Shown here in pieces: positions 12,856 to 38,324 of a DNA stretch of 61,311 nucleotides. The notes under the pieces are model-generated. The model did not search any database. It was not told where the DNA came from and saw only the letters and a list, made by a program, of their open reading frames with translations. Positions within the stretch are counted from its first letter, which is position 1. The number at the start of each line of letters is the position of its first letter. The DNA is from an uncultured Candidatus Saccharibacteria bacterium (GTDB taxonomy: Bacteria; Patescibacteriota; Saccharimonadia; CAILAD01; BJGX01), in contig CAZWVB010000001.1 of the NCBI GenBank assembly GCA_964637185.1, forward strand, positions 1-61,311. Direction: 5' to 3'. The position numbers and the translations under genes were made by a program.

Positions 12856-12889
12856 GAACCTCCCAAGGCCGGATGGCCCTGGGAGGTTC
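12856..12889. terminator. GC-rich hairpin
   Basis: GAACCTCCCA / TGGGAGGTTC plus inner GGCC/GGCC, just downstream of the RHH gene. Confidence 0.6.
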
Positions 12890-12909
12890 TTCGTTCCCGG
12901 CGTCCCGGC

Positions 12910-13200: not shown

Positions 13201-13319
13201 GGTGCCCTCCTTCGGTGGTGGTGCGAACGGTGATCCGTCTGTCGGATCGTTGGAACCGGCCGCATGCCGCCGATGAGGGTGATGGCGGGAGCCAGGCTTG
13301 ATCGCCCGGCTCCCGCGCT

Positions 13320-14116: not shown

Positions 14117-14128
14117 GGTGTGCTCCTC

Positions 14129-15996: not shown

Positions 15997-16123
15997 GAAC
16001 AGACCCCACAGTTGCCAGATGAATTGCCCATAGGAGTCGGTCGCGAAATCTGAGCATTCGCAGCCGCTGGCCAGGTCCGATGCGTACAGCTGCCGTTCGA
16101 TTGCGAGCAGGCGGCGATGCGCC

Positions 16124-22844: not shown

Positions 22845-24041
22845 CTATGCCCGAACCTGTAGAGGTCGCGTCTCGCGGTCCATTAGCTTCCAGCCGGGAT
22901 AACGGGCGGTCATGTAGATGATGCCGTAGATGATGAAGCCGAGGCCGACAGTCACCAAGAGCCCGGCGATCGGGTGCTGACCCCAAGCCGCGCCGGTGTA
23001 GACGACGATCATGGCTGGGAAGCAACAGAACACCAGCGCGGCGATGAAGGCCCAGAACCGACCACCGACCGTACCCGATACCGAACCGGCCAACCCCTTG
23101 CGACCGGTCTGCCTCAGCCAGATCGGCAAGCGCCACTTGACGGTGACGGCGTCGGTGGCGTTCTTGAGGTTGTGAGCGATCATCTGCCGGAACTCGTCGT
23201 CGTCGAAGCGCAGCTGCTGAGCACGGGTCAACATCTCGACACCACGCTCGGCCTGCTGCTGGGTGGTGATCACCCGATCACCGGTGTTGAGCAAGGTGTA
23301 GGACATCACGCAGGTGTCGTTGAGCGCGTGGGCCAGGTAGTACTGGAACACGTCTGCGTCGGGGAAGTCGCGCACGACCTGCTCCATGATCGGCAACGCC
23401 AAATCCGGGCGCTCCGTCTGCAAGTGCACGCTGGCGACCGATGATCGGTAGACGGGGTTGGCCGGCGCCAGCCCGGAGGCACGCTCGTAGCACGACAACG
23501 CCAGCGACCAGTTGCTGGCTTGTTCGTAGATGCCGCCGAGATCGAAGTGGTACTCCGGCTCATTCGGCTTGATCCGAAGCGCCTCGGAGTACTCGAAGAT
23601 CGCATCCTGCGTGTTGCCCAGCAGCATGCTCGTTTGACCACGGATCGCCCAGGCCTCGTGATTGGAGCCATCTTGGGTGGTCGCCTCACGCGCGGCATAG
23701 GACGCCGACTGCAGATCACCCTTGGTGAGGAACTCCTTGGCCCGGTCGAGCCAGTTGGCAGCGCCGCCCATGGAGCGCTCGCCACCATCCGCGCTCGGGC
23801 CCGCCCAACTGGCCAACTGCTGGTCGTAGGACGCTCTGGCTTCGGCGTTCAGCAGCACCTTGTTGGCTTCATCTAGCTTGCGCATCTGCTCCTCAGCTAG
23901 ATGGCGCTTGGACTGGTCCCCCGACGCTTGGCGCTTCTGCCAGGTGCGACGCTGGTTCTTCAAGGCCTGCTTGATCTCGTCCTCAGACGCGGTTCGAGAG
24001 ACCTCAAGCAGCTGATAGAAGTCTATGAAGTTGTCGGACAT
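22845..24041 (-). CDS. J-domain-like (no HPD) + TPR + 2-TM protein, paralog 1
   Basis: FIDFYQLLEVSRTASEDEIKQA...LDEANKVLLNAEARASYD; TPRs; C-terminal TMs. Confidence 0.85.
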   Translation of the reverse strand: MSDNFIDFYQLLEVSRTASEDEIKQALKNQRRTWQKRQASGDQSKRHLAEEQMRKLDEANKVLLNAEARASYDQQLASWAGPSADGGERSMGGAANWLDRAKEFLTKGDLQSASYAAREATTQDGSNHEAWAIRGQTSMLLGNTQDAIFEYSEALRIKPNEPEYHFDLGGIYEQASNWSLALSCYERASGLAPANPVYRSSVASVHLQTERPDLALPIMEQVVRDFPDADVFQYYLAHALNDTCVMSYTLLNTGDRVITTQQQAERGVEMLTRAQQLRFDDDEFRQMIAHNLKNATDAVTVKWRLPIWLRQTGRKGLAGSVSGTVGGRFWAFIAALVFCCFPAMIVVYTGAAWGQHPIAGLLVTVGLGFIIYGIIYMTARYPGWKLMDRETRPLQVRA

Positions 24042-24093
24042 TGAGTGGCCTCAGGTGTGATCTGGGTCTGTGAACGTGGCGTACTCTGGCTGA

Positions 24094-24477
24094 TTACGCA
24101 CCAAATAGCGTGCGTTCAACCTCCCGCACTATCTCGTCAGAGACACTCGATGGAGGAGTCTGGACCTTCAAGATGTGCGCAACAAAGTCGGAATCAACTC
24201 CCATGTTGTACTTGTCAACGTAGTAACCGAGATCGTTAGGCCAAGCCCATTGACCATCGGTCAATATCTCGTGAGGACCGATCTCTGGTCGACCCTCGTC
24301 GAGAACGTCGTAGTTGATGGTGCCTAGTGAACGAACCGCCGTTGGTGCTTCGGATAGATAGCGAACTACGGTCGCCTTGTCGTTCTGATCAATCCGTAGA
24401 GTTCCCGACATCTCCGCGATATCTGGACCGTCCGGTAGGGCATGATCTGTACCTTTCATAAAGCCTGTTGTCTTCAT
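24094..24477 (-). CDS. Putative immunity protein for toxin 1
   Basis: Directly downstream of the toxin, lower GC, TDGQWAWPNDLGYYV motif; GGAG SD before ATG 24477. Confidence 0.7.
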   Translation of the reverse strand: MKTTGFMKGTDHALPDGPDIAEMSGTLRIDQNDKATVVRYLSEAPTAVRSLGTINYDVLDEGRPEIGPHEILTDGQWAWPNDLGYYVDKYNMGVDSDFVAHILKVQTPPSSVSDEIVREVERTLFGA

Positions 24478-24493
24478 ATGTGTCTCCACTTAC

Positions 24494-25213
24494 TTACCTA
24501 GGTACAAATATGCGCCATTGGCCACTATTATTCAAGCCGACCACCAAACGACCATCAGAAAGCGGGTAAACAGTATCCGTGGCAGCCAAGACGGGTCGAC
24601 CGATTTCATTGGCCAATTGCTGAGCCGCACCGTCGTCGATCTGCCCGGCCTTGCACGAGACAAGTCGAATAGGAAGCGAACTCAAGTCCGGACTGGACTG
24701 AAGAGATCGTGCAAGAGTGGCTGGCTGGACAGGAGTCTTATCGCTGAGTCCGAAGTGAAAGGGATTTCCATGAATGACCACATCCTGATAGCCCGCTACA
24801 CCACCATTCCTATTGGCGTATTGTCCTGCGATATCGCTATCTGCGAGGAAGTTGAGACCGCCCCCCGCTGTACGAGAGTTGATCGTTGGGCCAGATCCGC
24901 CACTCCCGCCACTCGCATCGAGTGGACCCGCACCACTCCCTCCACCTCCACCGGCGATCCGTCCGACGAACTGCTTGGCGGCTTGCTGCGCGAGCTGGAG
25001 GGCCTGCGCGGCCTGTTCGCAGCGGTGGGCAGCCGTGTCGAGCTGTTGGGTTACTTGCTTGGGGCGAGGGTCGGCTGAGCCGGCTAGCACGGCGTTGGCC
25101 TGGTTTGCGGTCTGGCGGTTGCGTACGGCTTGGGCGGTGAGCTGCTGCACGACCGTCCCGATCTCTCCGGCGACGGCATCAACGTTGGCAGCGATGTCTT
25201 GGAGCTCGGACAT
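24494..25213 (-). CDS. Polymorphic toxin 1: WXG100-like N-terminus + His/Cys caspase/C80-like peptidase domain
   Basis: Helical N-terminal domain of about 85 aa, Gly linker, DVVIHG...IRLVSCKAG...AQQLANEIGRPVLA. Confidence 0.7.
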   Translation of the reverse strand: MSELQDIAANVDAVAGEIGTVVQQLTAQAVRNRQTANQANAVLAGSADPRPKQVTQQLDTAAHRCEQAAQALQLAQQAAKQFVGRIAGGGGGSGAGPLDASGGSGGSGPTINSRTAGGGLNFLADSDIAGQYANRNGGVAGYQDVVIHGNPFHFGLSDKTPVQPATLARSLQSSPDLSSLPIRLVSCKAGQIDDGAAQQLANEIGRPVLAATDTVYPLSDGRLVVGLNNSGQWRIFVPR

Positions 25214-25275
25214 CGCCTCGCTCAGCCTCCGCCGCAGTTGCGGCTGACGAAGAGCTTGCCGGCGGATTCGGCGGC
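24955..25275. repeat. 321-bp diverged direct repeat, copy 1 (copy 2 at 34456-34776)
   Basis: Covers the toxin N-terminal domain plus the last codons of the upstream WXG-like gene. Confidence 0.9.
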
Positions 25276-25494
25276 ATGAAGTTCCTGGGCGGCCTGCTCG
25301 CACTGCTCGGCAGCGTTCTGGAGAGCTTGGACCGTCTGGCGAGCTTGCGCGCTGGAGCTGCCTTTCACGGTTTGAGCGGCACGGGCTGCTGCTTGGCGCA
25401 GGTTCCGGGCTTGGGAGTGGAGCTGTTGGGCCATCGAGACGATGTCGCCAGCAATCGAGGTGACCTCGGTACAGATGCTCTGCAGCTCGGACAT
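25222..25494 (-). CDS. WXG100-like helical hairpin protein
   Basis: 90 aa, Ala/Gln-rich, central VKGS turn; similar to the toxin N-termini (CEQAAQ.L..A..A.K.FV.R). Confidence 0.65.
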   Translation of the reverse strand: MSELQSICTEVTSIAGDIVSMAQQLHSQARNLRQAAARAAQTVKGSSSAQARQTVQALQNAAEQCEQAAQELHAAESAGKLFVSRNCGGG

Positions 25495-25521
25495 GGTGGC
25501 TCAGGATCACCGGTCGAAGGA

Positions 25522-25782
25522 TCAGAGGGACGAGGCGTAGCTCTGAGCGGAGCTGGCAGCCTGCTGGAGGGCTTGCACGGCAGCTTCGACCTGCTTCTCG
25601 GCGTTCTTGAGGGTGGCGATGATCTCCTTGTCGACGTTCTGGGCGCTGCCACCAATCGCGGCGTTGACTTGGTTGACCGCGTTGGAGAACTTGGACTTGA
25701 AGGAGGACAGCCCACCCGCTGTCGACTTGGCGTCGTTGCTGATGCTGTTGAGCTGAGACTTGAGCTGTTGCAGTTGCGACAT
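25522..25782 (-). CDS. WXG100-like helical hairpin protein
   Basis: 86 aa, two amphipathic helices around IGGSAQ. Confidence 0.65.
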   Translation of the reverse strand: MSQLQQLKSQLNSISNDAKSTAGGLSSFKSKFSNAVNQVNAAIGGSAQNVDKEIIATLKNAEKQVEAAVQALQQAASSAQSYASSL

Positions 25783-25809
25783 GGCGTGTGCTCCGTTGTG
25801 TAGGTGGGC

Positions 25810-26499
25810 TTAGGTGGGTTGTTGGTCGGGTGGCGACGGCATCGGGCCTTTGGGGTTGAGAGCGACCTTGAGTCCAACAAGGACGGCAATGCCACCCACC
25901 ACACCTACCCCGATCAGCGCTGGCTGCCCGATCACCAGGCCAACGATGGCCACCAGGACGACGAGGGCTGCGCCGGCGATGCCGGAGGTCTTGGTGGCTT
26001 GCTGGCGTTTGAGCTGCCACGCTTGGGCTGCGGCCGAGGCGGCTTCTCGCTCGCGGCGTTGGCGTTCGGCTTCCTCGAGTTGGCGCTGGCGTTCCCGTTC
26101 TCGAGCGGCTTCTTCTTCGGCCAGGCGGCGTTCGTTTGCGGCGTGACGGTGGGCCTTGAGTTTGCGGCTGAGGCGGCGGATGTCACCGCTGGTGTCCTTG
26201 ATGTCGCGGGCCAGGTCGTCGGCGCCCTTGCTGGGCTTGGTCGAGGTGGGCTTGATGCTGGCTGGGACAAGTTGTCCGAGGGCAACATCGCGCAGGGCCG
26301 TCCGGGCATCGTTGAGAGAGGTCTCGACGAGCTGGCGGTGGGCGGTGACCTCCTCGCGTCGTCGGCCGGCGTCGGCTTCGGCTTTGAGCCTGGCTTGTTG
26401 CTCGTCAGCGCGCAGGCGGGCCTGCTCGGCGGCGTACCAGCCAGGCAAGCCGTCGAGCGCAGCAACGGCTTCGAGGTAGTCGGTCAGCTCGCTGCTCAC
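25810..26499 (-). CDS. Coiled-coil protein with C-terminal 2-TM hairpin
   Basis: GTGA-coupled to the FtsK gene; long R/E/A coiled coil; hydrophobic IAGAALVVLVAIVGLVIG... Confidence 0.75.
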   Translation of the reverse strand: MSSELTDYLEAVAALDGLPGWYAAEQARLRADEQQARLKAEADAGRRREEVTAHRQLVETSLNDARTALRDVALGQLVPASIKPTSTKPSKGADDLARDIKDTSGDIRRLSRKLKAHRHAANERRLAEEEAARERERQRQLEEAERQRREREAASAAAQAWQLKRQQATKTSGIAGAALVVLVAIVGLVIGQPALIGVGVVGGIAVLVGLKVALNPKGPMPSPPDQQPT

Positions 26500-29438
26500 A
26501 GCCGGCCTCGGGCGAGCTGGTCGAGCTGGTTGGGGTGGGATGGTGCGAACGGCACGATGACGTTGCCGGCTTGGCTGGCGGCTCGGTCGAAGAGCAGTGC
26601 ACGGTTGGCTTCAGGTTGCCAGTCAGCGAACGGGTCGTTGGTGATGTGGACGACATCATCACGGCTAGCGCCACTGAAGCAGAAGCCTTGCAGCAAGCCG
26701 GTGAGGCTGTAGTCGGACTCGATGTGCTGCTCGTAGGACTTGTAGTTGCCCCACCAGCACGCCAGGTGGATACCGAAGGTGCTGCCGTCCCGGACGAGCG
26801 CTCGCAGTTCCTCTACCGGGGTGTCGGCTCCTATCGCGGCGGGGCGATCTAGCCCGGCGGCGCGGTGCATGGCGAAACCGAGCACGTAGGTGATCGGGCC
26901 GGAGGCGCCATCGAGCCGTTCTTGTAGGTCTTGGCGCAGCGCAGAGATTGACGCTGGCAACTCTCGAGCGCCGATGATGTCGACATCGTGACCCCAGGAA
27001 GTCAGGCAGGTGGCCAGCTGCGGCAACGCCGCCACTGGTCGCTGCTCGTCCATCAGCAGATCGAGTAGCAGGAAGCGTTGCTCATGGCTCCGGTCAGCGC
27101 CGAGGCAGAGGGCGGTGGCATGTAGTAGGCCGATGGCTTCGTGCCCGGCAACGTCACGGCGCTCGCCGGCGGCTGTGGTCTCGGGCTGGTCGTCTTGGCT
27201 GCCTCCGCCCGGGCCAATGATGGCGAGGTGACGGCCCGATTCCTGGCGGAAGCTGAAGCGCACTGCTTCGCGTCTGACCGCGACCGGCAAACCCATCAGA
27301 ACGGTGCCGGAAGTCGGCTTGCTGCGGAGCGCGGAGAAGCCCGGGTTGCTGAGCAACTCGGCCGGCTCCGAGCCGACGAAGACCAGCGGAGGTGGCTGCT
27401 TTGGGAAACGCTGGCAGAGTTCAGCGCGCAGCTTGGCCATGTCGGCCTTGTCGGCGAAGGCGACGGTGATGCGTTGATTGGAGTCGAGATCACCGAAGTT
27501 GCGGTTGAGAATGGCCTCGCCGCTGTAGCGCAGCCGAGCGGCTTCGGTGTTGCCGGTCTGCAGCACGACCTGGGAGCCGTTGGCGTTGATCTTGAGCGCG
27601 ATGCGGATTGGGAACTGGCCGAAGATCGAGTCTTGCTTGGTCACCAAAGATTGGATGCCATCAAGCGTCTGGGTCGCCAGCACCAGGTGGATGCCGTAGG
27701 CCCGGCCCTTTCGCGCCAGGGTGTCGAACATGGCGACGGCTTGGTCGGTGACGTTGTCGTCGCCTTCGAGCAGGGCCTGGAACTCGTCGATTACAACGAG
27801 CAGTCGGGGCATGCGGCTGGTTGGTTCGGCTTCGCGGAACTGGGCCAGGTTTTGGGCGCCCACGCGCTTGAAAGCGGTGGCGCGCCGGTTGAACTCGGCG
27901 TGGATGTGTTGCAGGACCGCGAGGCCAAAGGGTCGATCGCTCTCCACGCCGACCACCCGAGCATGGGCTAGGCCGTGGCCGTCGTCGCGTTCGGGGGCGA
28001 AGGCGTTGAACTCCAAGCCCTCCTTGAGATCGAGCAGGTACATCTCGACTTCATCGGGCCCGTAGCGGGCGGCGACGCCGTGGATCATGACGTGTAGCAG
28101 GTTCGACTTGCCAGAGCCGGCGGCACCAGCGATCAGGACGTTGTGGGTGTTGTCGATCTTGTCGCCCAGCGTGAAGCCAGCGTTGCGCACACCGGTGCGG
28201 CCAATGACCACTTCGATTCGTTCAGCGGCCGACTCCGTGGTGTCGCCGTTTGCGTTCGGCAGCAGGCTGCGGAACGCGATGGCGGGCGCGGCCGCCACCT
28301 TGGCCGCAGCTGCGACTCTTTCACAGACGGCGGCTACCAACTCGGCCGGCGCGGGCGGATCGAGCGTGGTGTCGAGGTTTGGTGCCAGCGGTGAGCGCCA
28401 ACCGGGCTTGCGAGCGGGAACGACCGTGGCGAACTCATACAGCTTCTCGGGATCGCGATCGCGCGGGTCGCTGACCGAACTGTTGTGGTGGACGATCAGG
28501 CTGACACCGCGGGTCGGGCCGCGCTCGGCAAGCCGCACGATGGTGTCGAAGCTGCGTTCGTCTATCCCAGCCGGGAAGTCCATCATGACCAGTAGCCGGT
28601 ACGGTTCGATGCTTTGGCCGGCGGCGCGTTGTAGATCGCCGAGGGTGTTGTGCTCGCCGCTGAGCAGCTCGGCCAGTTGCGAAACGGTTCGTACCAGCTC
28701 GGTGCTGGTCTCGTAGATCTCGGTGTCCTGGGTTAGCGCCGGGGTCACCAGCAGAGGCGCTTCGCGCAGTCCGCTCACAAACGGTGCCAGGGTGCCACGC
28801 AAGCGAGGGTCGTACCACTGGATCTGCAGATCCCCCGGCGTGGTGGCCGCGAGCAGGCGCACAATGATCGAGGCGATCAGCTCCTGGGCGGCGGCCACGG
28901 AGTTGTCGTCGGACCTGACGACGAGATTGCCGCTGTTGAGAAACGGCACCAGCAGCGGCAGCTTGACTGCCTCGTTGATGCCGTTGCCGACCGGCAGACA
29001 GAGCTGACCGATGCGCACTCCGGCCGGTGAGCTCAGCGCCGGTGCGGTTTGCAACCAGCTCTGATCCTGCCATTCAGCGGCAGCTGGTCCCGCGGCAATC
29101 TGCGAGGCAGCGTTCATGGCGCGGGAACGTTGCTCAATAACTTGTTGAGCGACCCGGTTGCCGACGGTGGCCCGGGCCTTGTCGGCAGCTTGCTTGGCGC
29201 GTTGCGCTTCCTCGGCGGCCAGGCGTTTGGCTTCACCTTCCCTGTTGGTGGTTACGCCGAGCAGTCCGGCCGCATCCCCACACAGGTTCTTGGCCAAGCT
29301 CTCAAGCTGGGCTACAAGCTCGGCTTCTTGCTTGGTGTCCCGATCGGCTGCCGGGGAAGGCGCGGCTGAGGGGGCGCGGCTACCGCGCCCGGCTCGTTCG
29401 ACTTGGCGACCGCCGTTAGTCGAGCTGGGCGGGCTCAT
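26496..29438 (-). CDS. FtsK/SpoIIIE ATPase, EccC/EssC-like multi-domain, no TM segments
   Basis: HNVLIAGAAGSGKS, MYLLDLKEGLEF, LLVVIDEFQ, RKGRAYGIHLVLATQ; degenerate flanking domains; start placed at ATG 29438 (GAGG SD). Confidence 0.88.
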   Translation of the reverse strand: MSPPSSTNGGRQVERAGRGSRAPSAAPSPAADRDTKQEAELVAQLESLAKNLCGDAAGLLGVTTNREGEAKRLAAEEAQRAKQAADKARATVGNRVAQQVIEQRSRAMNAASQIAAGPAAAEWQDQSWLQTAPALSSPAGVRIGQLCLPVGNGINEAVKLPLLVPFLNSGNLVVRSDDNSVAAAQELIASIIVRLLAATTPGDLQIQWYDPRLRGTLAPFVSGLREAPLLVTPALTQDTEIYETSTELVRTVSQLAELLSGEHNTLGDLQRAAGQSIEPYRLLVMMDFPAGIDERSFDTIVRLAERGPTRGVSLIVHHNSSVSDPRDRDPEKLYEFATVVPARKPGWRSPLAPNLDTTLDPPAPAELVAAVCERVAAAAKVAAAPAIAFRSLLPNANGDTTESAAERIEVVIGRTGVRNAGFTLGDKIDNTHNVLIAGAAGSGKSNLLHVMIHGVAARYGPDEVEMYLLDLKEGLEFNAFAPERDDGHGLAHARVVGVESDRPFGLAVLQHIHAEFNRRATAFKRVGAQNLAQFREAEPTSRMPRLLVVIDEFQALLEGDDNVTDQAVAMFDTLARKGRAYGIHLVLATQTLDGIQSLVTKQDSIFGQFPIRIALKINANGSQVVLQTGNTEAARLRYSGEAILNRNFGDLDSNQRITVAFADKADMAKLRAELCQRFPKQPPPLVFVGSEPAELLSNPGFSALRSKPTSGTVLMGLPVAVRREAVRFSFRQESGRHLAIIGPGGGSQDDQPETTAAGERRDVAGHEAIGLLHATALCLGADRSHEQRFLLLDLLMDEQRPVAALPQLATCLTSWGHDVDIIGARELPASISALRQDLQERLDGASGPITYVLGFAMHRAAGLDRPAAIGADTPVEELRALVRDGSTFGIHLACWWGNYKSYEQHIESDYSLTGLLQGFCFSGASRDDVVHITNDPFADWQPEANRALLFDRAASQAGNVIVPFAPSHPNQLDQLARGRL

Positions 29439-29961
29439 CGGCAGCCTCGATCGGGCCGGCTTGAGCCAGCACGACGTGCGCGGGACGGACCACCCGATCG
29501 CCGTGGCGGTAACCACGGCGCACCACTTCAAGTACCAGGCTGTGCCAACCTTCGTCGTCAACCAGCTGGGTCTCGATGATCTCACAGACGCCCGGGTCGA
29601 ACGGGCTGCCAACCTCAAGCGTGATCGGCTCCACACCTTGTCGGCGCAGCAACTCCAGCAACTCCTCGGCGGCATGGTCAACGAAGTCACCGTCAGGGCC
29701 CTGGTAACGCTCGAAGCGATCAAGCACCAGCATCAGATCGCGCATCAGAGGCATCGCTGCCATGCCATCGGCAGCTTTGCGGGCGGTTTCTAGTTCGGCA
29801 TACAGCTTGTCGTACATCTCCTGCTTCTGGCGGTCTTGCAATAGCCGGCGGTTGAACAGGTCATGCAGAGTCTGCATCTTCTCCAATAGCTCAGCCGCGG
29901 ACGGCTGGACGGTATCGGCAGCGCTCGGGGCATCGGTGGCTTCGACTGGCGCGTCGCTCAT
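29416..29961 (-). CDS. grpE: GrpE-family nucleotide exchange factor
   Basis: LMRDLMLVLDRFER, GVEPI..GSPFDP, VVRRGY..GDRVVRPAHVVL. Confidence 0.85.
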   Translation of the reverse strand: MSDAPVEATDAPSAADTVQPSAAELLEKMQTLHDLFNRRLLQDRQKQEMYDKLYAELETARKAADGMAAMPLMRDLMLVLDRFERYQGPDGDFVDHAAEELLELLRRQGVEPITLEVGSPFDPGVCEIIETQLVDDEGWHSLVLEVVRRGYRHGDRVVRPAHVVLAQAGPIEAADEPAQLD

Positions 29962-31175
29962 CGCCGCACCTGCATCGACTTGCTCTCGGCGTCCATGATC
30001 CTCCAGCCGGGCACCCGGCAGGTCTTGTAGAAGATGAAGTACAACAAGCCGATCGCCGCAGCGGCGATCAGGAAGCCGCCACCTTTACTGCCGGCGTCAC
30101 GGGCCGCGAACAACATGCCACCACCGATGATGATGGCGGCGGGCATCAGGCACCACAGGAAGCAGCCGAGGCTAGCCATCTTCAGGCCGCGCCCCATGCC
30201 ATCGGGATGGTTCTTGCCACCAAACCACATGGTCCAGAACGACTCACGCAGCCACGACGGTCGACGCCACTTCACGGCTAGGGCGTCGTTGGCCAGCTTG
30301 AGGTTCTGGTCGATCAGCTGCTGGGTGTCGACATCGTCGTATGTCAGGCCCTTCGCTCGTTCGAGCAGGCTGACGGCGTTGCGGGCCTGCTGCTCGGTGG
30401 TGACGATGCGAGTGCCATCGTTGAGCAAGGTCAGGCTCTGGACGACCGAGTCGTTGAGGGCGTTGGCCAAGTAATAGTTGACGACCTCGTTGGTCGGATC
30501 CTCGGCGTAGACCCGCTCGATCACAGGCAACGCCAAGTCGGGCCGGTCGTTCTGCAGATGCACGCCGGCCACCGCCAAACGGAAGACCGGCACCTGCGGC
30601 GCGATCGAGGCGGCGCGCTCGTAACTACTGAGCGCCTGGTTCCACTGTCCCATCTCCTCGTAGACAGTGCCAAGATCGAAGTGGTAGCTCGGCTCGTTGC
30701 CATTGAGCCGAATGGCCTCGCCATACTCGAAGATGGCAGCTTGGTGCTCACCGGTCAGCAGGCTGGTCTCGGCCCGGAACGCCCAGGCCTCGTGGTTGGA
30801 GCCGTCATGGGTGGTGGCTTCGCGAGCGGCGTAGGCGGCCGAGTGCGCGTCGCCACGAGCCAAGAAGTCCCGGGCTCGATCCAGCCAGTTGCCGGAGCCG
30901 TCCGAGGAGGGCCCAGCCGTCGGTGCCGGCGGACGGTAGTTGGCCAGCTGCTGGTCGTAGCTGGAGCGGCTTGAGGCGTTGAGCAGGACGCGGTTCGCCT
31001 CGTCGAGATGACGCATCTTCTCCTCAGCTTGGGCACGACGCGTTGGGTCCGGCGCGTTCTGGCGCTTCTGCCAGGTCTTGCGCTGCCGCTTGATCGCCTC
31101 GCGGATCTGCTCAGCGTTCGCGGTCGGCGGCACCTGCAGCAGCTCGTAGAAGTTGACGAAGGTGTCGGTCGCCAT
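29958..31175 (-). CDS. J-domain-like (no HPD) + TPR + 2-TM protein, paralog 2
   Basis: FVNFYELLQVPPTANAEQIREA...LDEANRVLLNASSRSSYD; similar to 22845-24041 along its length. Confidence 0.85.
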   Translation of the reverse strand: MATDTFVNFYELLQVPPTANAEQIREAIKRQRKTWQKRQNAPDPTRRAQAEEKMRHLDEANRVLLNASSRSSYDQQLANYRPPAPTAGPSSDGSGNWLDRARDFLARGDAHSAAYAAREATTHDGSNHEAWAFRAETSLLTGEHQAAIFEYGEAIRLNGNEPSYHFDLGTVYEEMGQWNQALSSYERAASIAPQVPVFRLAVAGVHLQNDRPDLALPVIERVYAEDPTNEVVNYYLANALNDSVVQSLTLLNDGTRIVTTEQQARNAVSLLERAKGLTYDDVDTQQLIDQNLKLANDALAVKWRRPSWLRESFWTMWFGGKNHPDGMGRGLKMASLGCFLWCLMPAAIIIGGGMLFAARDAGSKGGGFLIAAAAIGLLYFIFYKTCRVPGWRIMDAESKSMQVRR

Positions 31176-31177
31176 AG

Positions 31178-32719
<1,542 letters not shown>

Positions 32720-32910
32720 GACGATGTCCCTCCGGTGATAGGCGCGTGCGGATCAGATGCTCCGACGCAGGTCAGCGAGGACAGGCACCGCCGGGATGAA
32801 AGCCTCCGTCCGCCGCCACGCGTCCCCTGTGACTGGAGACACCCTATGCAAGCACGCGCGCGCGACGAAAGGGCAACTGGCGCGCGCCTTCGTTTGGAAC
32901 CTCGTTCGGG

Positions 32911-33678
32911 TTAGAGGCCTCGCAGAGTGCGCACGAACCAGCGCACCTCCTGCCATTCCGGCAGCCTGGGCGGATGGCGGGTTCCGGTGAAGCGGCGGAA
33001 GTCCGGCGCTGGCAGGCCAGCCAGTTCGTGGGCGACCTGGCGGAGCCGGGCGATGGTGCGGCGCGACACCGGCAGCTCGGACTGGCGGCGACTATCCAGC
33101 CAGAGCTCGTCGGGATAGTCCTCGACCGTGGCGAGGAAAGCAGCGAGGTCGCCGTCCCAGCTCAGGCCCAGCTCTTCCCGCAGCGCCCATTGGGTCGGCA
33201 GGCGGCAGCCTTCACTCGGTTCACACACTGCTTGGGCGAGAGCGCTTCCAGTCGCGAAACGATGCAGGGGCCCGTAATAGAAGTCGGCACCAGCTTCGGC
33301 CAGACGCAGCGCCAGATAGCGACTGGCCAGCGTCCGGCAGGTCGCCACGATCATAAGTTCGTCTGGTGCCTTCTGAGCGCGCAGTCTCGCCACCGCCGAC
33401 ACGCCACAGAAGCGGTCGCGTTCGAGCGCGCACGCGCTGACCTCGACTAGCGCCGTAATCGGTCCGTCCGACTTAGCCAGGCCAACAGCCAGTGCATCCT
33501 CAGGCGCGCAACAGGCCGCGACCGTCAGCCCAGGGTGATGGCGGCAGAAGTCGGTGACACCGGCCCGGTAAATCTCATCGGCGTCGACCACCAAGACCGA
33601 TCGAGGTTCCGCTCCCGCGCGGTGGTTTCTCACCGCACCAGTCTCGCGCCGCCAGACCTCGCGTTCGATGGACGGCAC
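32911..33678 (-). CDS. Atypical receiver-domain (response-regulator-like) protein
   Basis: RSVLVVDADEIYRAGV...GADFY receiver-like pattern; no kinase nearby. Confidence 0.5.
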   Translation of the reverse strand: MPSIEREVWRRETGAVRNHRAGAEPRSVLVVDADEIYRAGVTDFCRHHPGLTVAACCAPEDALAVGLAKSDGPITALVEVSACALERDRFCGVSAVARLRAQKAPDELMIVATCRTLASRYLALRLAEAGADFYYGPLHRFATGSALAQAVCEPSEGCRLPTQWALREELGLSWDGDLAAFLATVEDYPDELWLDSRRQSELPVSRRTIARLRQVAHELAGLPAPDFRRFTGTRHPPRLPEWQEVRWFVRTLRGL

Positions 33679-33687
33679 CGCTGTGGC

Positions 33688-33966
33688 TTACGACTGTTCG
33701 AACAGCGACTCGTCCGTTCGGCGACCAGCAGCAAACTCCCGCTCGTGGACGTCGGGGGAAACGCTGGAGTTTGCAAAGAGGACAGATCCATCACTTGCAA
33801 CGAGTACTGCGCCGCCTCCGCGTCGGTCCTGCCACACGTAGGTCGCGTCTCCCTCGATCTCGCGCGAGTTCGTTGTTGCTTCTTCACGAGATAGCTGCAA
33901 CAGTCCAGCGGCCTTCTGGATGCGCTGATCTCGATTCATATGGTCGGAAGGACTAGTGTTAGACAT
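33688..33966 (-). CDS. Putative immunity protein for toxin 2
   Basis: Overlaps the toxin stop; lower GC; RGGGAVLVASDGSVLFANSSV motif. Confidence 0.65.
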   Translation of the reverse strand: MSNTSPSDHMNRDQRIQKAAGLLQLSREEATTNSREIEGDATYVWQDRRGGGAVLVASDGSVLFANSSVSPDVHEREFAAGRRTDESLFEQS

Positions 33967-34714
33967 TTGCATCCCAGTATACAACAGGATGTTCGGTTGA
34001 GCCATACTCTGGCGGCCAGTCCAACACTTCCCCTGATTGACCATCAATAGCGAAAATGGATGACCCATCATAATAGGCATTGAACCAATGGCCGGGCGCA
34101 TCATTTCGATCAATTCCAACCACACAATGACTTCCGGGCCCGGCCTCTATCAGCGCGCTCTGGATCTTCTCAGGGGTCGTGGCCTTCTGCTGACGCCCGG
34201 TGGCGTCCGCCATGCCCGCCACGGAAAGCGTCCCGATCCCTGCCGATGCCGACTCGTCACGCCCTGACAGGCGTTGGTACACCGCCAGCGCGCACTGGCC
34301 GCAGTTCTTCGATCTTGGATCGAATGGATCGGAGCTACCTCCAGCGTTGATCTCACCAAGCCACCCCTTGATGGCCCCGATTGTCTGGGCCCGGTGTCCT
34401 CCTGCGGAAGGCTCGGTCGTTGAGGTGGGCCCGCTCCCACTACCTCCGCCACCTACGATCCGTCCGACGAACTGCTTGGCTGCTTGTTGAGCGAGCTGGA
34501 GGGCTTGTGCGGCTTGTTCGCAGCGTTGGGCGGCGGTGTCGAGCTGTTGGTTGACTTGTTTGGGACGGGGATCAGCTGAGCCTGCCAAGACGGCGTTGGC
34601 TTGTGCCGCGGTCTGGCGGTTGCGTACGGCTTGAGCGGTGAGTTGCTGCACGACCGTCCCGATCTCTCCGGCGACGGCATCGACGTTGGCGGCGATGTCT
34701 TGGAGCTCGGACAT
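33959..34714 (-). CDS. Polymorphic toxin 2: WXG100-like N-terminus + papain-fold Tox-PL (deamidase-like) domain
   Basis: N-terminus nearly identical to toxin 1; NCGQC, GHWFNA, IDGQSG catalytic pattern. Confidence 0.8.
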   Translation of the reverse strand: MSELQDIAANVDAVAGEIGTVVQQLTAQAVRNRQTAAQANAVLAGSADPRPKQVNQQLDTAAQRCEQAAQALQLAQQAAKQFVGRIVGGGGSGSGPTSTTEPSAGGHRAQTIGAIKGWLGEINAGGSSDPFDPRSKNCGQCALAVYQRLSGRDESASAGIGTLSVAGMADATGRQQKATTPEKIQSALIEAGPGSHCVVGIDRNDAPGHWFNAYYDGSSIFAIDGQSGEVLDWPPEYGSTEHPVVYWDANV

Positions 34715-34776
34715 CGCCTCGCTCAGCCTCCGCCGCAGTTGCGGCTGACAAAGAGCTTGCCCGCGGACTCGGCAGC
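34456..34776. repeat. 321-bp diverged direct repeat, copy 2
   Basis: Aligns without gaps to 24955-25275. Confidence 0.9.
34723..34776 (-). pseudogene. 3' remnant of the WXG-like gene 25222-25494
   Basis: Encodes AAESAGKLFVSRNCGGG*, identical to that gene's C-terminus; upstream sequence is unrelated. Confidence 0.7.
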
Positions 34777-35060
34777 GTCGTTGACCACCCGGACCGCGCT
34801 ATCCGCTCCTCCCGCGAGCCTGGTCTCCACTGCACCAGTCTCGCGCGACGGACTCCGGGCGCCGCGTCCATCGTCTGCCAGTCGCACCACGCTCTGCCCG
34901 GCTCTTCCCAAATAGACGCCCATTTCCTATAATAGAGGGGTAACGAGACACCGCTATATCAACCGTTGAGAGCCTTCACCAGCCGGAATCTGCTTCTCAA
35001 CTCGCCACCCGCTTCGCCACCGAAGCCAACAAATCCGAGGATGCGCGAGAGCATTCGCTA

Positions 35061-36272
35061 TTGAATGAGGCTGGCCGCCGGGTCCAGCATAAGAACCTTG
35101 ACGGTGCGCAACGGCTGCTCGAAGCCGACGAGCAGTGGACACCAACCAGGCGGACTCTGGCAGTCGAAGCTCACCGTCTGCTCCAGGCTGAAGAAGGCCG
35201 CAAGCCGCTTGGGATCAACCAGGCTCTCGATGTGCTGACCTTCCAAGCCGACGACCTCGTCAAGCACGAGCGTCAACTCGGCGACGACACCGGTTTTCTG
35301 AAGAGTGCCCTGCAAGGCCGTGAGCTGATCACCCGAGCCCGCGAAGGCAGCGACAGCAGCTCTCTCCAGCCAGTACTGGCCTACGTCGAAGGCGTGCTGG
35401 CCACCAAGTCCCGCAACCTGGCCACGAGCGGAGGCGACATCGAGGATGTCAACCAGACCCGCGACGTGCGCAACGCCCTGGTTGGCGAGATCGAACGCCT
35501 GCATACCCGCGAAGCCCGCACTGAGCGAGCCGGCCGGACGATGGCACAGCATCAAGCCGAGACGGGCCAACAACTACGGGCGCTGTGGCGGCAGGCGGCG
35601 ATGCCCGCCAACGGTGAAGCCTTGCAGAGAATCGCTCAGCTGCCGGCGAACGAGCTGCGCCACCTACGCGGCGAACTGGATCGCATCCGGACAGACGCTC
35701 GTGAGCGACGACTTGACCGCGGCCAGCTGGCCCACGAACTAGAGAGTGCCCTCTCGCAGTCCTACGACGCCGAGAGCGTGCACCAACGCAACCGCGCGGC
35801 TGCCGAAGAGCGGGCGGAACGAGCGCGCGAGGTCATCGACCGGCACACCACCGCGCAGACCGAGCAGCAGCCTGAAACCGAAGAGAGTGCCCGCGACGCT
35901 TTCCGCAAGCGCGCGATGCTGTGGAACCAGATGGAACAGCGCTTCGGCGCGAACCTGTCTCAACCCGAGTTCGACCGTACCTTCGACGCAGCGGCCATGA
36001 AGCAGCTGCAAGAGCTGGCTGCCCGCTCGATCGACTACCTGACGCGCGACCTACGTCTGCTGGAGCAATCCCGCGGTGAGCGCACCGGCTACCTCGACCG
36101 CGTCAGTGTGATCCTCGGCGGCAGCGAGGTCCTGCGCCACCTCGTCTCCCGCACCGAAGGCAAGCCAGTCGAACGGCAGCAGTACGAGTCGATGCCCTAC
36201 TCCAGCTTCGCGCCGAAGTACCTCGGCATCGACGTGCCGCCCGACTATGGCCGCTACTTCGTGCAGGGCTGA
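35061..36272 (+). CDS. Helical/coiled-coil hypothetical protein (start uncertain)
   Basis: 403-aa ORF, R/E/A/L-rich, high-GC codon use. Confidence 0.65.
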   Translation: MNEAGRRVQHKNLDGAQRLLEADEQWTPTRRTLAVEAHRLLQAEEGRKPLGINQALDVLTFQADDLVKHERQLGDDTGFLKSALQGRELITRAREGSDSSSLQPVLAYVEGVLATKSRNLATSGGDIEDVNQTRDVRNALVGEIERLHTREARTERAGRTMAQHQAETGQQLRALWRQAAMPANGEALQRIAQLPANELRHLRGELDRIRTDARERRLDRGQLAHELESALSQSYDAESVHQRNRAAAEERAERAREVIDRHTTAQTEQQPETEESARDAFRKRAMLWNQMEQRFGANLSQPEFDRTFDAAAMKQLQELAARSIDYLTRDLRLLEQSRGERTGYLDRVSVILGGSEVLRHLVSRTEGKPVERQQYESMPYSSFAPKYLGIDVPPDYGRYFVQG

Positions 36273-36355
36273 CACTCTGAGCCAGCCCTGACGCGTATGC
36301 GTCGTTCGGTTTAGGATCGGGCTGCTTACTGGCGGATCCGACCCGGGTGATAGTC

Positions 36356-37645
36356 ATGGCACAAGACACCTTCGTTGACTACTACGAGCTGCTGGAAGTC
36401 GCGCCCGACGCGACGGTGGAAGAGATCACGACGGCGCTGCTGGCCGCTCGTCGGACTTGGACCCGTCGTCAGAGCCAGGCCGCCGACATCGCCCGCCGCC
36501 AGGCAGCCGAGCTGAGGGTGCGCCAACTCGATGAAGCCGACCAGGTGTTGCGCGACCCGACCCGGCGCGCTCAGTTCGACCAGTTCCGTGTGCATCGAGC
36601 CAGCCAACCTCCAGGCGCGAAGCCGCTGCGGCCAACCTACGTACCCGGCTCCGCACCGGCGCCAGTTCCCGGCCCACTGCCGCCACCGAACGCCCCTCCG
36701 CCACCGTTCGGGCAACCAATGCCCGGTCCGCCTCCGCCGCCGCCGGCGCGACTCGGACTGGTGACCGAGGTCATCTACAACAACCCGATCCAATACCCCA
36801 CGCCGTTCCGGCCATTGCTCGGTCCACGCGGCGAGCCGCTCATGCAGGACGCAGAGCAGCCCCTGTCGGGTCTTGGCGGTGGGGTGTTCGTTGGCTACAT
36901 GCCCTGGGACGGCGCACCAGTGCAGATCGTCGCCGACGTAGCCGGCATCTCACACATCACGTTCACCGATCGACGCGTCATCTACCTCGGCTTCAACTAC
37001 GTCATGCCGCAGCAGGCCCGACAGTACGGCCGCAACGCCGAGACCCTCACCGGATCGCTCGTGGGCTTGGGAGCGAGTTTCGCCGCCCAGAAACGAGCCG
37101 AGGGTCGAGCCGCTCGCCAAGTCATGGGCAAAGCTCTCGGCGGCCAGATCCCGTATGAGTACCTGCTCAACGTCAGCATCATTCCGATCCAAACCGACGT
37201 GGGTGTGACCGGCATCCTGCGCCTCATCCTCGGCTGCGGCGAATCTACCTATCTCATTGGCATCGACGTCGCCAACCAGTCGCTTGATCAGCTAAGGGCC
37301 ACCGCGCAGTGGCTGATGCAAACGATTCTGCATCATCGCCTGCGGGAGTTCAGCGAGCTGCTTCTGCCCAGCGAGATCGACGAGATCCAGTTGGCGCTCA
37401 GCAATCCGCAGCCTGTCTACTCACCGGACGGCCAGCTCGACTGGGAGCTACCTCGCGGTCTCGATGGACAAGAGGTTCTCGGGGATGGAAGGCCACCTCC
37501 GCCAACGGATGTGCGCCCGTTGTTGCCGGCGCACATGCGACCTCCACCACCAGCCGGCGCAGCCCAGCACGTCGGAGGGCCTTCAGTGCAGGCCCCGAAG
37601 CCGACCACGGCCGCACTCCGTTCGCAGCAACCGCCGCCAAGCTGA
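36356..37645 (+). CDS. J-domain-like (no HPD) protein 3 with Pro-rich linkers and central globular domain
   Basis: FVDYYELLEVAPDATVEEI...LDEADQVLRDPTRRAQFD. Confidence 0.8.
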   Translation: MAQDTFVDYYELLEVAPDATVEEITTALLAARRTWTRRQSQAADIARRQAAELRVRQLDEADQVLRDPTRRAQFDQFRVHRASQPPGAKPLRPTYVPGSAPAPVPGPLPPPNAPPPPFGQPMPGPPPPPPARLGLVTEVIYNNPIQYPTPFRPLLGPRGEPLMQDAEQPLSGLGGGVFVGYMPWDGAPVQIVADVAGISHITFTDRRVIYLGFNYVMPQQARQYGRNAETLTGSLVGLGASFAAQKRAEGRAARQVMGKALGGQIPYEYLLNVSIIPIQTDVGVTGILRLILGCGESTYLIGIDVANQSLDQLRATAQWLMQTILHHRLREFSELLLPSEIDEIQLALSNPQPVYSPDGQLDWELPRGLDGQEVLGDGRPPPPTDVRPLLPAHMRPPPPAGAAQHVGGPSVQAPKPTTAALRSQQPPPS

Positions 37646-37734
37646 TGCGCGGCTGCCTGCGAGCGCTGTTGACGTTCATCCTGATCGGCAGCATCTGCAT
37701 GGTCATCGTCGTGCTCATCGGTCGGCCCCGATGA
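37645..37734 (+). CDS. 29-aa hydrophobic peptide, or a frameshifted TM tail of J-protein 3
   Basis: MRGCLRALLTFILIGSICMVIVVLIGRPR; TGATG and ATGA coupling. Confidence 0.4.
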   Translation: MRGCLRALLTFILIGSICMVIVVLIGRPR

Positions 37735-38324
37735 GCGAACCAGAAGCTGGCTTGCGCAACCGGTGGAGAGGACTGAGCCAGACTGCCCGTGGCTCCAGCT
37801 TCATCGCGGTGGGAACCTTGTTGCTGATCGCCGGTGTCATCACGTCCCTGAGCCTCAGCCCAAGCAGGTCGTCGACCAATGTGTACGCCTCGGGAGCGGG
37901 TTCGGCTGCGACTTCGACCATCACATCGACAACGAGTGCCTACAGGTCTAGCTCGACGGCATCGACGAGTACGGCTTCGACCGTAAGGCTGACCACCACC
38001 AGCCAACTCATCACCACAACGACACAGCTTGTCAGCGACCCGTCGGACTTGGCCTCGGGCTGGGTGGCCCGCCTGGGTTCGAGCCAACCGGGCGTGCCAC
38101 GGGAGGTATCCGACATCACGAATCTGCTCACGCAAGTCCGGGCGCGGTACCCGAACGCCGCGGTGTATCTGACCGATGCGCTCGGTGGCCGATCGACACT
38201 TCGCCCGGGCTACCTGGTGCTGCTCGTCGGCAGCTATCCCGACCGCAGCAGCGCCGTGGCTGTATGCGCCCAGCTTTCGAGCTCGCTGAAGCCGTACGGC
38301 TGCGACGTCGACTACATCAGCTGA
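37731..38324 (+). CDS. Single-TM protein with S/T linker and small extracellular (SPOR-like?) domain
   Basis: N-terminal TM similar to 20894-22834; poly-S/T; two Cys near the C-terminus. Confidence 0.65.
   Translation: MSEPEAGLRNRWRGLSQTARGSSFIAVGTLLLIAGVITSLSLSPSRSSTNVYASGAGSAATSTITSTTSAYRSSSTASTSTASTVRLTTTSQLITTTTQLVSDPSDLASGWVARLGSSQPGVPREVSDITNLLTQVRARYPNAAVYLTDALGGRSTLRPGYLVLLVGSYPDRSSAVAVCAQLSSSLKPYGCDVDYIS

Follow-up and report, generated by a model that had tools for sequence, protein, structure and literature searches.

The HPD tripeptide is taken to define the J-domain and to be indispensable to it. In the DNA analyzed here, a 61,311-nucleotide stretch from an uncultured Candidatus Saccharibacteria bacterium (contig CAZWVB010000001.1 of assembly GCA_964637185.1; hereafter the window), a mobile element encodes three J-like proteins from a large conserved family in which HPD is exchanged for another, equally constrained motif, and these proteins are paired with a lidless Hsp70 and a private GrpE. 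The Hsp70, J-like and GrpE genes constitute a conserved, co-inherited set on integrative conjugative elements (ICEs) and plasmids. Furthermore, this triad is operonically fixed to an ATPase resembling EccC/EssC of type VII secretion (the T7SS), a coiled-coil transmembrane (TM) protein, an 86-amino-acid protein and polymorphic toxins. On comparison of the sequences, the view that the Hsp70 and J-like proteins form a private, co-evolved pair appears well supported, and we hold with modest confidence that the triad as a whole acts as a private, co-evolved chaperone set serving T7SS-like toxin export. The module thereby points to an undescribed chaperone-assisted toxin system. The members of the triad in the window are the following (TPR, tetratricopeptide repeat):

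31178 to 32719, minus strand: Hsp70, 513 amino acids (Pfam HSP70, E = 1e-126)
29958 to 31175, minus strand: J2, 405 amino acids, directly downstream of the Hsp70 gene; reads ...RQRKTWQKRQ... (Pfam DnaJ, 31.7 bits, plus TPR families)
22845 to 24041, minus strand: J1, 398 amino acids, a J-like protein with TPR and two TM helices; reads ...NQRRTWQKRQ... (Pfam DnaJ, 34.5 bits, plus TPR)
36356 to 37645, plus strand: J3, 429 amino acids from the ATG; reads ...AARRTWTRRQ... (Pfam DnaJ, 26.8 bits)
29416 to 29961, minus strand: GrpE-like nucleotide exchange factor, 181 amino acids (Pfam GrpE, 1.6e-16; far below the NCBIfam GrpE cut-offs)

A first-pass annotation of the window, made from its letters, had reported that three J-domains carry W-x-[KR]-R-Q in place of HPD while the flanking J helices are kept, and both statements agree with the open reading frames (ORFs) and with alignment. 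When J1 was aligned to E. coli DnaJ with HMMER, W-Q-K-R-Q fell opposite Y32-H33-P34-D35-R36, with four additional residues at the start of helix III; the triplet at the HPD position is thus Q-K-R in J1 and J2 and T-R-R in J3. The gathering cut-off of the Pfam DnaJ model (PF00226) is 27.8 bits, which J1 and J2 exceed and J3 misses by 1 bit. A phmmer search with the N-terminus of J1 also retrieved the structures of the E. coli DnaJ J-domain (1BQ0 and 5NRO_B) at E ~8e-8. In J2, the J-like domain (residues 8-79, with KTWQKRQ at 33-39) precedes a TPR region (~97-247) and a helical domain, and two TM helices lie toward the C-terminus. The AlphaFold2 (AF2) model of this protein (predicted local distance difference test score, pLDDT, 83.9) contains four J-type helices, at residues 9-13, 21-38, 44-64 and 67-79, and places the TM helices at 327-359 and 364-386. 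A Foldseek search with the whole J2 model returned TPR proteins alone and was uninformative on the J part. J1 is 51% identical to J2.

J3 also fits the profile of the J-like family, and its architecture consists of the J-like domain, a proline-rich linker and a C-terminal domain of ~250 amino acids without a family match. Its longest ORF begins with a GTG at 36347, and the only relatives found were 84-90% identical. J3 may direct the same Hsp70 to another client. Two further genes flank it, encoding a 403-amino-acid protein of no known role (35061-36272) and a TM, Ser/Thr-rich protein with a faint SPOR match (~37728-38324).

The replacement of HPD extends far beyond the window. When a profile built from 17 J-like/TPR/TM proteins was run exhaustively on 1.84 billion representatives, 1180 matches at E <= 1e-30 resulted, some of which are giant TPR proteins. 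Motif statistics were taken from the best 150 of these 1180 matches; 134 bear the J-like domain, at a pairwise identity of at most 50%. Among these 134 representatives, the successive columns read [RK] (91%), any residue, W (93%), any residue, K (54%; N 13%, Q 9%, R 9%), R (86%) and [TQ] (81%), and a further conserved Arg lies in the helix III insertion (87%). HPD occurs at the aligned position in none of them. The broader family motif is therefore [RK]-x-W-x-x-R-[TQ], of which W-x-[KR]-R-Q is a local form. Since the motif is conserved across so many mutually divergent representatives, the loss of HPD is not a matter of chance. By the defining HPD feature, the window proteins are J-like proteins rather than J-domain proteins.

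The partner Hsp70 is, by its lid and linker, a derivative of DnaK. The catalytic residues K70, E171, D194, T199 and D201 (E. coli numbering) are present and are 100% conserved in 121 members of the family; the first-pass annotation had noted the retention of the catalytic Lys, Glu and Thr. The annotation was also right that the protein stops soon after the substrate-binding beta domain (SBD-beta): the C-terminal end lies at about DnaK residue 521, so that only SBD-beta and lid helix A remain, and the positions from DnaK 522 onward are gaps in 121/121 family members. Relative to the Geobacillus and Mycobacterium DnaKs, 16 residues are inserted ahead of the linker, which reads KPIRVSDVTSHGLG where DnaK has KDVVLLDVTPLSLG in the alignment to solved DnaKs; the altered segment after the insert is IRVSDVTSHGLG, with the linker given as IRVSDVTS. 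The annotation had described this linker as no longer hydrophobic. Across the family, the positions of L390 and L392 are indeed variable and often polar, but that of L391 is V or I in 100% of relatives; D393 is Asp in 98%.

The partner Hsp70s are ~505-520 amino acids long, and their family comprises more than 120 cluster representatives of 505-548 amino acids and 51-59% identity, with named carriers in Kocuria, Arthrobacter, Actinopolymorpha and Dactylosporangium as well as a Thermomicrobiales metagenome-assembled genome (MAG) and a MAG labeled Sulfitobacter. The window Hsp70 is 41% identical to DnaK and 35% identical to E. coli HscC. Against the NCBIfam DnaK equivalog models NF001413 and TIGR02350, it scored 433.6 bits (cut-off 648) and 420.8 bits (cut-off 822.55), and the window proteins all fall far under the cut-offs of the NCBIfam models for DnaK, DnaJ and GrpE. 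PADLOC returned no defense-system match for the Hsp70, J-like or GrpE proteins, and NCBIfam has no model for these members. Identification of the Hsp70 as HscC was considered and rejected on account of the low identity, the different linker and C-terminus, the partner motif (which is not HPE) and the private GrpE.

Two further features set the family apart. First, in 120 family members, the C-terminus follows the pattern [LM] (79%)-[ED] (68%)-[VI] (97%)-x-COOH, the window protein ending in ...KDIN. This motif is reminiscent of the eukaryotic EEVD tail that is bound by TPR co-chaperones, and as the partner J-like protein has TPR, we propose as a hypothesis that a similar contact may exist here. 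Alternatively, as the AF2 model has the C-terminal residues in a beta bridge, the tail may act as an internal pseudo-substrate. Second, the GrpE-signature loop (DnaK 286-291) is deleted throughout the family, the corresponding site in the window protein being around residues 258-260. The absence of this loop from HscA and HscC has been taken as a sign that they do not interact with GrpE. As the loop is missing, yet every operon has its own GrpE, the exchange factor may have co-evolved with its Hsp70.

The surface on which a J-domain would act was examined position by position in the same 121 family members against 59 canonical DnaKs and E. coli DnaK (MG1655). The 59 controls are canonical loci from a genome scan with the Hsp70 alignment, which picked up the universal motifs GIDLGTT and DLGGGT. 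Relative to canonical DnaK, E206 is replaced by R/K in 82% of the family, T417 by K/R in 93% and D477 by A/S in 99%. Other group-specific changes include I478 to Y/F, P396 to S and L397 to Q/H, and the lid-latch residue R445 is replaced by D. Position 481 is Asp in 100% of the family and Asn in 59/59 canonical DnaKs, E. coli DnaK having Asp as well. In the DnaK-DnaJ complex, the reported contacts are D35-R167, H33-L391/L392 and K26/Y25-E217 (PMC13012618). Within DnaK, R167 forms intramolecular ion pairs with D393 of the linker and D481 of SBD-beta, with which D35 of DnaJ competes (PMC7289447). R167 is Arg in 98% of the close family, including the window Hsp70; it is replaced by Ser in the subclade of loci L089-L093, in which the gene order is J-Hsp70 and D393 and D481 remain Asp, and by His or Gln in two other loci (L082 and L094). 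The parts of the Hsp70 in contact with HPD and helices II/III are systematically changed, and within the R167/D393/D481 triad it is the acidic half that is invariant.

A simple charge swap, in which R167 would have been exchanged opposite the J-like Arg, was considered and rejected, given that R167 is retained in 98% of the close family. The annotation had proposed a co-evolved J-Hsp70 pair, to be checked by covariation across homologs and by structure prediction. The constant adjacency of the genes, the constrained motif and the altered J-interface positions speak for such a pair; the simple compensatory change is missing, and residue-level covariation between the J-like loop and Hsp70 positions gave no signal in a set of only ~15 pairs. 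Structure prediction gave four J-type helices for J2 and a docked fold for the Hsp70. The AF2 model of the latter, computed from a 65-sequence alignment (pLDDT 92.8; predicted template-modeling score 0.90), adopts the docked conformation, in which the linker forms a beta strand. Superposition on ATP-state DnaK gave root-mean-square deviations of 3.1 (7KRT), 3.8 (5NRO; template-modeling score 0.86) and 3.9 (4B9Q), the template-modeling scores spanning 0.84-0.87, and the fit to the undocked 2KHO was poor (deviation 18); AF2 may, however, favor the docked state. The agreement of the model with ATP-state DnaK suggests that interdomain coupling is preserved.

Several observations count against the proposed reading. 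HPD loss normally abolishes stimulation. In the window's own pair, R167 is kept beside the J-like Arg, which precludes 5NRO-type docking of the J-like loop. Part of the acidic landing pad for helix II is reversed (E206R) and the J-like helix II is still basic, which speaks for a different docking mode or none at that site. In the J2 model, moreover, W-Q-K-R ends a lengthened helix II and does not lie in a loop. The missing covariation weighs in the same direction. One alternative sees in the J-like domain a pseudo-J domain without stimulatory action, which would serve only as a tether or brake, as Pam16/Tim16 does next to Pam18. Through its TPR and TM parts the protein would position the lidless Hsp70 at the membrane, with hydrolysis driven by substrate alone or by another partner. 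The tether would account for the absence of HPD in 134/134 representatives, for the replacement of D35 by Arg while its partner R167 is kept, and for the charge reversal at E206 of the surface that receives helix II. In addition, a canonical HPD J-domain was found in no related operon, and the conserved Hsp70 tail and the partner's TPR would offer a binding route independent of the J-like domain. A tether would, however, have no need of a near-invariant W and R exactly at the trigger position or of the conserved Arg in the helix III insertion. Retention of R167/D393/D481 and of the catalytic residues, the docked model and the private GrpE imply a regulated cycle, which normally needs a trigger. 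The Pam16/Pam18 precedent also includes an HPD-bearing partner, and none is present here. On these grounds, we consider a pure tether rather unlikely.

Decay was also considered, the J-like domains being remnants of ordinary J-domains and the Hsp70 a truncated, non-functional copy of DnaK. The loss of HPD, of the lid and of part of the linker, and the score of J3 just under the Pfam threshold, could be read in this way. However, the ORFs are intact, both families are large and show position-specific conservation, synteny is conserved, the folds are predicted with high confidence, and metatranscriptome contigs match the genes perfectly. The conservation data effectively refute decay, and we assign it a negligible probability.

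Conservation of the operon also speaks for the private triad. Genomic contexts were drawn from look-ups of exact proteins (the Arthrobacter sp. CJ23 chromosome, the MAG labeled Sulfitobacter and the Thermomicrobiales MAG), from metagenome loci and from a plasmid of Rhodococcus pseudokoreensis R79; scanning metagenomes with the J-like alignment yielded 21 loci, ~16 of them real. Wherever a locus was long enough to show both genes (16 loci besides the window), Hsp70 and J-like genes lie side by side, in either order, and the GrpE gene follows the pair in related loci as it does in the window. The order of Hsp70 and J-like genes (either first), GrpE and EccC-like ATPase is found in 11/11 close loci with enough sequence after GrpE, namely the window, L081-083, L085, L087, L089-091, L093 and L107. 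The EccC-like ATPase is usually followed by a protein of ~200 amino acids, an 86-amino-acid protein and a toxin whose N-terminus is of the shared type. Across loci, the toxin C-termini are of the Tox-PL1, ART or calpain-like protease type or belong to the window's family of no known type. This synteny spans Actinomycetota, the Thermomicrobiales MAG and the MAG labeled Sulfitobacter.

L107 (NZ_CP070617.1, 69175-77792) is a complete module on the 102-kb plasmid of the cultured strain R79, with the Tn7-like genes TnsA, TniB and TniQ as neighbors. Its J motif is K-D-W-T-R-K-Q, its Hsp70 ends in ...L-T-V-S, and its J-like protein carries only the RefSeq name 'tetratricopeptide repeat protein'. In L083, a NB-ARC/STAND protein (6715-9201) precedes the operon.

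The genome scan with the Hsp70 alignment also returned 14 other non-canonical Hsp70 loci. Non-canonical Hsp70s of 508-690 amino acids, encoded in the double-Hsp70 loci L002, L003, L050 and L054 and in L005, L007, L014, L017, L019 and L043 (Verrucomicrobiota/Planctomycetota), have linkers of the similar form x-[IV]-x-[DN]-[IV]-T-S-H-[ST]-L-G and pre-linker inserts, and in L002, L003, L050 and L054 the genes are arranged Hsp70-GrpE-Hsp70. An HPD-less J-like neighbor is encoded in L003, L007, L017, L050 and L054, with a Trp-containing segment instead of HPD in all except L054 (e.g., RRSWAQGQ, QKWNGRV and VWWQKKL). J-like partners of this type, with Trp and without HPD, may therefore be more widespread and older.

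In the window, the minus-strand cargo runs in the order 255-amino-acid protein, Hsp70, J2, GrpE, ATPase, 229-, 86- and 90-amino-acid proteins, toxin, gene in immunity position, J1 and a secreted beta-propeller protein. A first toxin (Tox-PL1/Gln_amidase) with its own small gene in immunity position lies upstream of that cargo, and J3 is encoded on the opposite strand. The partners of the triad are as follows:

33959 to 34714, minus strand: polymorphic toxin 1, 251 amino acids; N-terminal helical domain shared with toxin 2, followed by Gln_amidase (PF15644, 1.3e-10)
33688 to 33966, minus strand: probable immunity protein for toxin 1, ~92 amino acids, so assigned from its position alone; no family match
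32911 to 33678, minus strand: 255-amino-acid protein upstream of the Hsp70 gene, with a homologue upstream of Hsp70 in L081 (E = 7e-24)
26496 to 29438, minus strand: EccC/EssC-like ATPase of the FtsK/SpoIIIE family, ~980 amino acids from the likely start, the ORF extending up to 29723 (Pfam FtsK_SpoIIIE, 4.8e-24)
25810 to 26499, minus strand: 229-amino-acid coiled-coil protein with a C-terminal hydrophobic (TM) region; no Pfam family
25522 to 25782, minus strand: 86-amino-acid helical hairpin protein with a central GGS turn, a candidate WXG100-like substrate or adaptor
25222 to 25494, minus strand: 90-amino-acid stand-alone copy of the toxin N-terminal helical domain, of the KGS or GGS turn class; no toxin domain
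24494 to 25213, minus strand: polymorphic toxin 2, 239 amino acids; shared N-terminal helical domain, Gly-rich linker, C-terminal domain without a known family
24094 to 24489, minus strand: probable immunity protein for toxin 2, 131 amino acids, directly downstream of the toxin; no Pfam family

The ATPase is closer to T7SS motors than to FtsK. Its best NCBIfam matches were T7SS EccCa (1.7e-27), EccCb (1.2e-24) and EssC (1.9e-22), compared with 5e-6 for FtsK, all of them far below cut-off (96.5 bits vs 509). The PDB likewise gave EccC (4NH0, 8e-21), EccC5 and YukB among its best matches, with 7NP7 at 3e-17 and 9QKS at 4e-15, ahead of FtsK (3e-8). The 229-amino-acid protein has a homologue at the equivalent place in L082, proteins of 202-224 amino acids stand there in L082, L083 and L107, and the L107 counterpart has a similar coiled-coil and TM sequence. 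The 86-amino-acid protein is found at 47-77% identity in L081, L082, L083, L089, L091 and L093 and is also present in L107. The 86- and 90-amino-acid helical proteins have a central GGS or KGS turn and lack the WXG motif; the latter has a weak Pfam WXG100 match (E = 0.0037) that is below cut-off. For the 255-amino-acid protein, which may be an accessory or regulatory component, Pfam, PADLOC and NCBIfam returned no match.

The toxins show the features of polymorphic toxins, with a common N-terminal domain, variable C-termini and small downstream genes to which an immunity role can be ascribed. Toxins 1 and 2 are identical over their first 36 residues and differ in their C-terminal domains. Together with the lone 90-amino-acid gene for the N-terminal domain, this shared N-terminus looks like a record of toxin-tip swapping. 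The C-terminal domain of toxin 1 belongs to PF15644, which we take from the Pfam description to be Tox-PL1, and homologues of this toxin occupy the same operon position in L081 and L083. The C-terminal domain of toxin 2 and the downstream immunity-like gene resemble those on the Rhodococcus plasmid, where the corresponding immunity candidate is a 134-amino-acid protein downstream of the related toxin.

Several features of the same genes count against export through a T7SS-like machine, and the T7SS-like label for the module is correspondingly weak. The ATPase has one recognizable P-loop domain and, on reading of the sequence, no TM segment. The small proteins have no significant WXG100 match in Pfam, and a profile search of the PDB reached EsxB only at E = 0.7. 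No Pfam or NCBIfam matches to EccB/D/E, MycP or EssA/EssB/EsaA were found among the proteins of the island, and the only membrane proteins of the operon are the J-like/TPR/2TM proteins and the 229-amino-acid coiled-coil protein. Moreover, two more distant loci have the triad without an EccC-like ATPase. In L098 it stands alone, and in L100 (9836-16017) it is followed by a 921-amino-acid STAND NTPase with TPR repeats. The triad may therefore be a portable module that couples to different NTPases.

Alternatively, the module might export no toxin and instead serve conjugative transfer, entry exclusion, establishment, or intracellular conflict or defense; in the latter case, the Hsp70 triad would set a threshold for an NTPase and effectors, as in the Hsp70-containing systems of Kaur et al. 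(2020). Conjugation genes lie beside it in the window, L081 and L083; in L100, a related triad is coupled not to an EccC-like ATPase but to a STAND NTPase, and the L083 operon has a STAND gene ahead of it; no obvious membrane channel is encoded at the locus; and combinations of Hsp70, GrpE and DnaJ-TPR recur in NTP-dependent conflict systems (PMC7159879). Nevertheless, the effectors are built like exported polymorphic toxins, with a shared N-terminus, Tox-PL1, ART and protease tips and genes in immunity position, and Tox-PL1 toxins have mainly been assigned to T7SS export (Zhang et al., 2012). Neither conjugative coupling proteins nor FtsK are as close to the ATPase as EccC/EssC. A relaxase and a coupling protein are already supplied by the ICE, and PADLOC recognized none of the three chaperone components. 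A role other than export is, in our judgment, improbable, and toxin export assisted by the private triad remains the preferred reading.

The module lies on an island that differs in composition from its host. The window consists of a chromosome of 48% GC, from an organism of activated sludge or wastewater, with Obg, LeuRS, SMC and PurH, interrupted by an island of 64% GC from ~9.85 to 38.78 kb. Its backbone is as follows:

9801 to 18400, minus strand: ICE backbone with serine recombinase, ImmA/IrrE peptidase, ArdA, DNA methylase, Replic_Relax relaxase and TraG/VirD4-like coupling protein (Pfam)

A tRNA-Ala gene (9852-9928) coincides with the left edge of the island and shares sequence with the 3' end of the serine recombinase ORF, which is encoded on the opposite strand. 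The island edges showed no long direct repeats. The tRNA edge, recombinase, relaxase and coupling protein identify the island as an integrative conjugative element, and conjugation genes also adjoin L081 and L083. Among public sequencing runs, 24 of which were listed per query, 16 contained Hsp70/J2 at >=96% of sampled words and were not in the list for the host LeuRS, and only four (X9, X15, X16 and X20) were in both lists, which hints that the element occurs in several hosts. Metatranscriptome contigs from sludge (180-255 nt, depth 2-10) match the Hsp70 and J2 genes perfectly, which is weak evidence that the two genes are transcribed. Metatranscriptome peaks of 600x at 32175-32220 and 32685-32720 were considered as expression and rejected as cross-mapping of universal Hsp70 motifs. 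In the chromosomal part, the leucyl-tRNA synthetase (48683-51769, 1028 amino acids) is unusual in having a NUDIX domain (PF00293, 1.2e-14, residues 441-569) directly after the editing domain.

From the perspective of mechanism, these components can be assembled into a working proposal. The J-like protein would be anchored in the membrane, exposing its J-like and TPR parts to the cytoplasm, where the TPR domain might hold either the helical domain of the toxins and small proteins or the C-terminal [LM]-[ED]-[VI]-x tail of the Hsp70. The anchored protein would recruit the private Hsp70 via its J-like domain, perhaps also through a TPR-tail contact. By engaging the junction of nucleotide-binding domain, linker and SBD-beta, the J-like domain would then control ATP hydrolysis. 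The Hsp70, cycled by its own GrpE, would keep the toxin export-competent or make it so, and would pass it to the EccC-like ATPase, which would power T7SS-like export. On this proposal, the HPD-less J-like protein would stimulate the ATPase of its Hsp70, and the pair would be orthogonal to DnaK/DnaJ.

The most speculative step concerns the trigger itself. The K/R pair of the J-like domain might break the R167/D393/D481 triad from the opposite side, by binding the aspartates; such an attack is conceivable because D393 and D481 are near-invariant, whereas one subclade dispenses with R167. An inversion of the trigger's polarity is possible, though we regard it as doubtful. The altered surfaces would in addition insulate the pair from the host DnaK and DnaJ, in line with the insulation from housekeeping DnaK that the annotation had proposed. 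Cross-reactions would be disfavored, since the basic helix II and D35 of DnaJ would face R206 and K417, and the J-like Arg would face R167 of DnaK. Such insulation would suit the module, as it must work in any host that the ICE or plasmid enters. Taken to its fullest extent, the proposal would describe a new mobile machine for export or toxin delivery, with an HPD-independent, charge-inverted trigger, a triad that replaces the membrane and chaperone parts of the T7SS, and a soluble EccC-like ATPase; this combination seems rather unlikely on present evidence.

Should the pair prove active, it would provide a natural test of the path by which the J signal reaches the catalytic center and a ready-made orthogonal set of Hsp70, J protein and nucleotide exchange factor for synthetic biology. 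It would also give Hsp70 an unexpected part in the T7SS-like export of toxins encoded on ICEs and plasmids of Actinomycetota and Chloroflexota. If the charge-inverted machine were real, Hsp70 activation would have a second solution in nature, and bacteria would have a secretion route powered by chaperones. Cultured carriers, namely Rhodococcus pseudokoreensis R79 and Arthrobacter sp. CJ23, make the question testable. In the literature and curated libraries searched, no description of the window operon or of the W-x-K-R replacement was found. In a large survey of J-domain proteins, every sequence that lacked a complete HPD was dropped ahead of the main analysis (PMC10410713), and a 2026 review referred to bacterial DnaK derivatives as unexplored 'dark matter' (PMC13580251).

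Among known systems, the closest analog is E. coli HscC, an Hsp70 whose J-partners have been described as co-evolved and distinct from DnaK/DnaJ (Mayer, 2021; PMC8215388). As in the window, a specialized Hsp70 is encoded beside its own membrane-anchored J-proteins, DjlB and DjlC, which have a non-standard trigger; on reading of their sequences, both carry HPE and a C-terminal TM anchor. However, HPE keeps His-Pro and an acidic third residue, whereas the window triplet is x-K-R. HscC has a shortened lid, an L1,2 insertion, the linker VILTDICP, E206 and T417, and the window protein differs in linker and C-terminus. Furthermore, HscC works without GrpE, of which the window module has its own, and the hscC locus has neither an EccC-like ATPase nor toxin genes.

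The canonical DnaK-DnaJ-GrpE system shares with the window the same three folds, the catalytic residues, the R167/D393/D481 triad and the predicted docked ATP state. The window system differs from it in lacking HPD, the lid past helix A and the GrpE-signature loop, and in having the pre-linker insert, an altered J surface and the [LM]-[ED]-[VI]-x tail. HPD-less J folds have precedents of another kind. Pam16 is such a fold at a membrane translocation motor, where it acts with an Hsp70 and a GrpE-type exchange factor beside the HPD-bearing Pam18. DNAJB13 has also been noted as HPD-less (PMC10410713). Unlike the window proteins, neither Pam16/Tim16 nor DNAJB13 has a comparable conserved replacement motif, and unlike the Pam16 motor, the window operon has no HPD protein.

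Fusion of a J-type domain to TPR also has eukaryotic counterparts. In DNAJC7/Tpr2 and DNAJC3, both are present in one polypeptide, and TPR domains are known to dock EEVD tails. The window proteins similarly combine J and TPR in one chain, and their partner Hsp70 ends in a short acidic-hydrophobic motif. In contrast to the eukaryotic proteins, the J-like domain comes first, a membrane anchor is present, HPD is absent, and the proteins are bacterial and mobile; docking of the tail on TPR is hypothetical here. A further comparison is with GTPase-centric conflict loci of actinobacteria and firmicutes in which Kaur, Burroughs, Iyer and Aravind described Hsp70 with GrpE and DnaJ- or TPR-fused partners (Kaur et al., 2020; PMC7159879). 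These share with the window a non-housekeeping Hsp70, GrpE and J/TPR, and they are similar to the double-Hsp70 loci L003, L050 and L054. They center, however, on GAP1-N2 GTPases and FNIII, whereas the window centers on the EccC-like ATPase, the 86-amino-acid protein and toxins; neither the window operon nor the replacement of HPD is described in that work.

Finally, the window resembles the T7SS (ESX and T7SSb) in its P-loop ATPase related to EccC/EssC, its helical proteins of ~90 residues, its toxins with a shared N-terminus and its genes in immunity position. A distinct YueA-like ATPase and Tox-PL1 toxins have been reported for 'mobile versions of T7SS', with no mention of Hsp70, DnaK or DnaJ (Zhang et al., 2012). 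The canonical ATPase is membrane-anchored and has three FtsK-like domains, whereas that of the window has one P-loop domain and no evident TM segment. The triad of Hsp70, J-like protein and GrpE, which no searched paper reports for a T7SS, is an integral part of the window operon. By its components, the window system is thus T7SS-like but not a T7SS.

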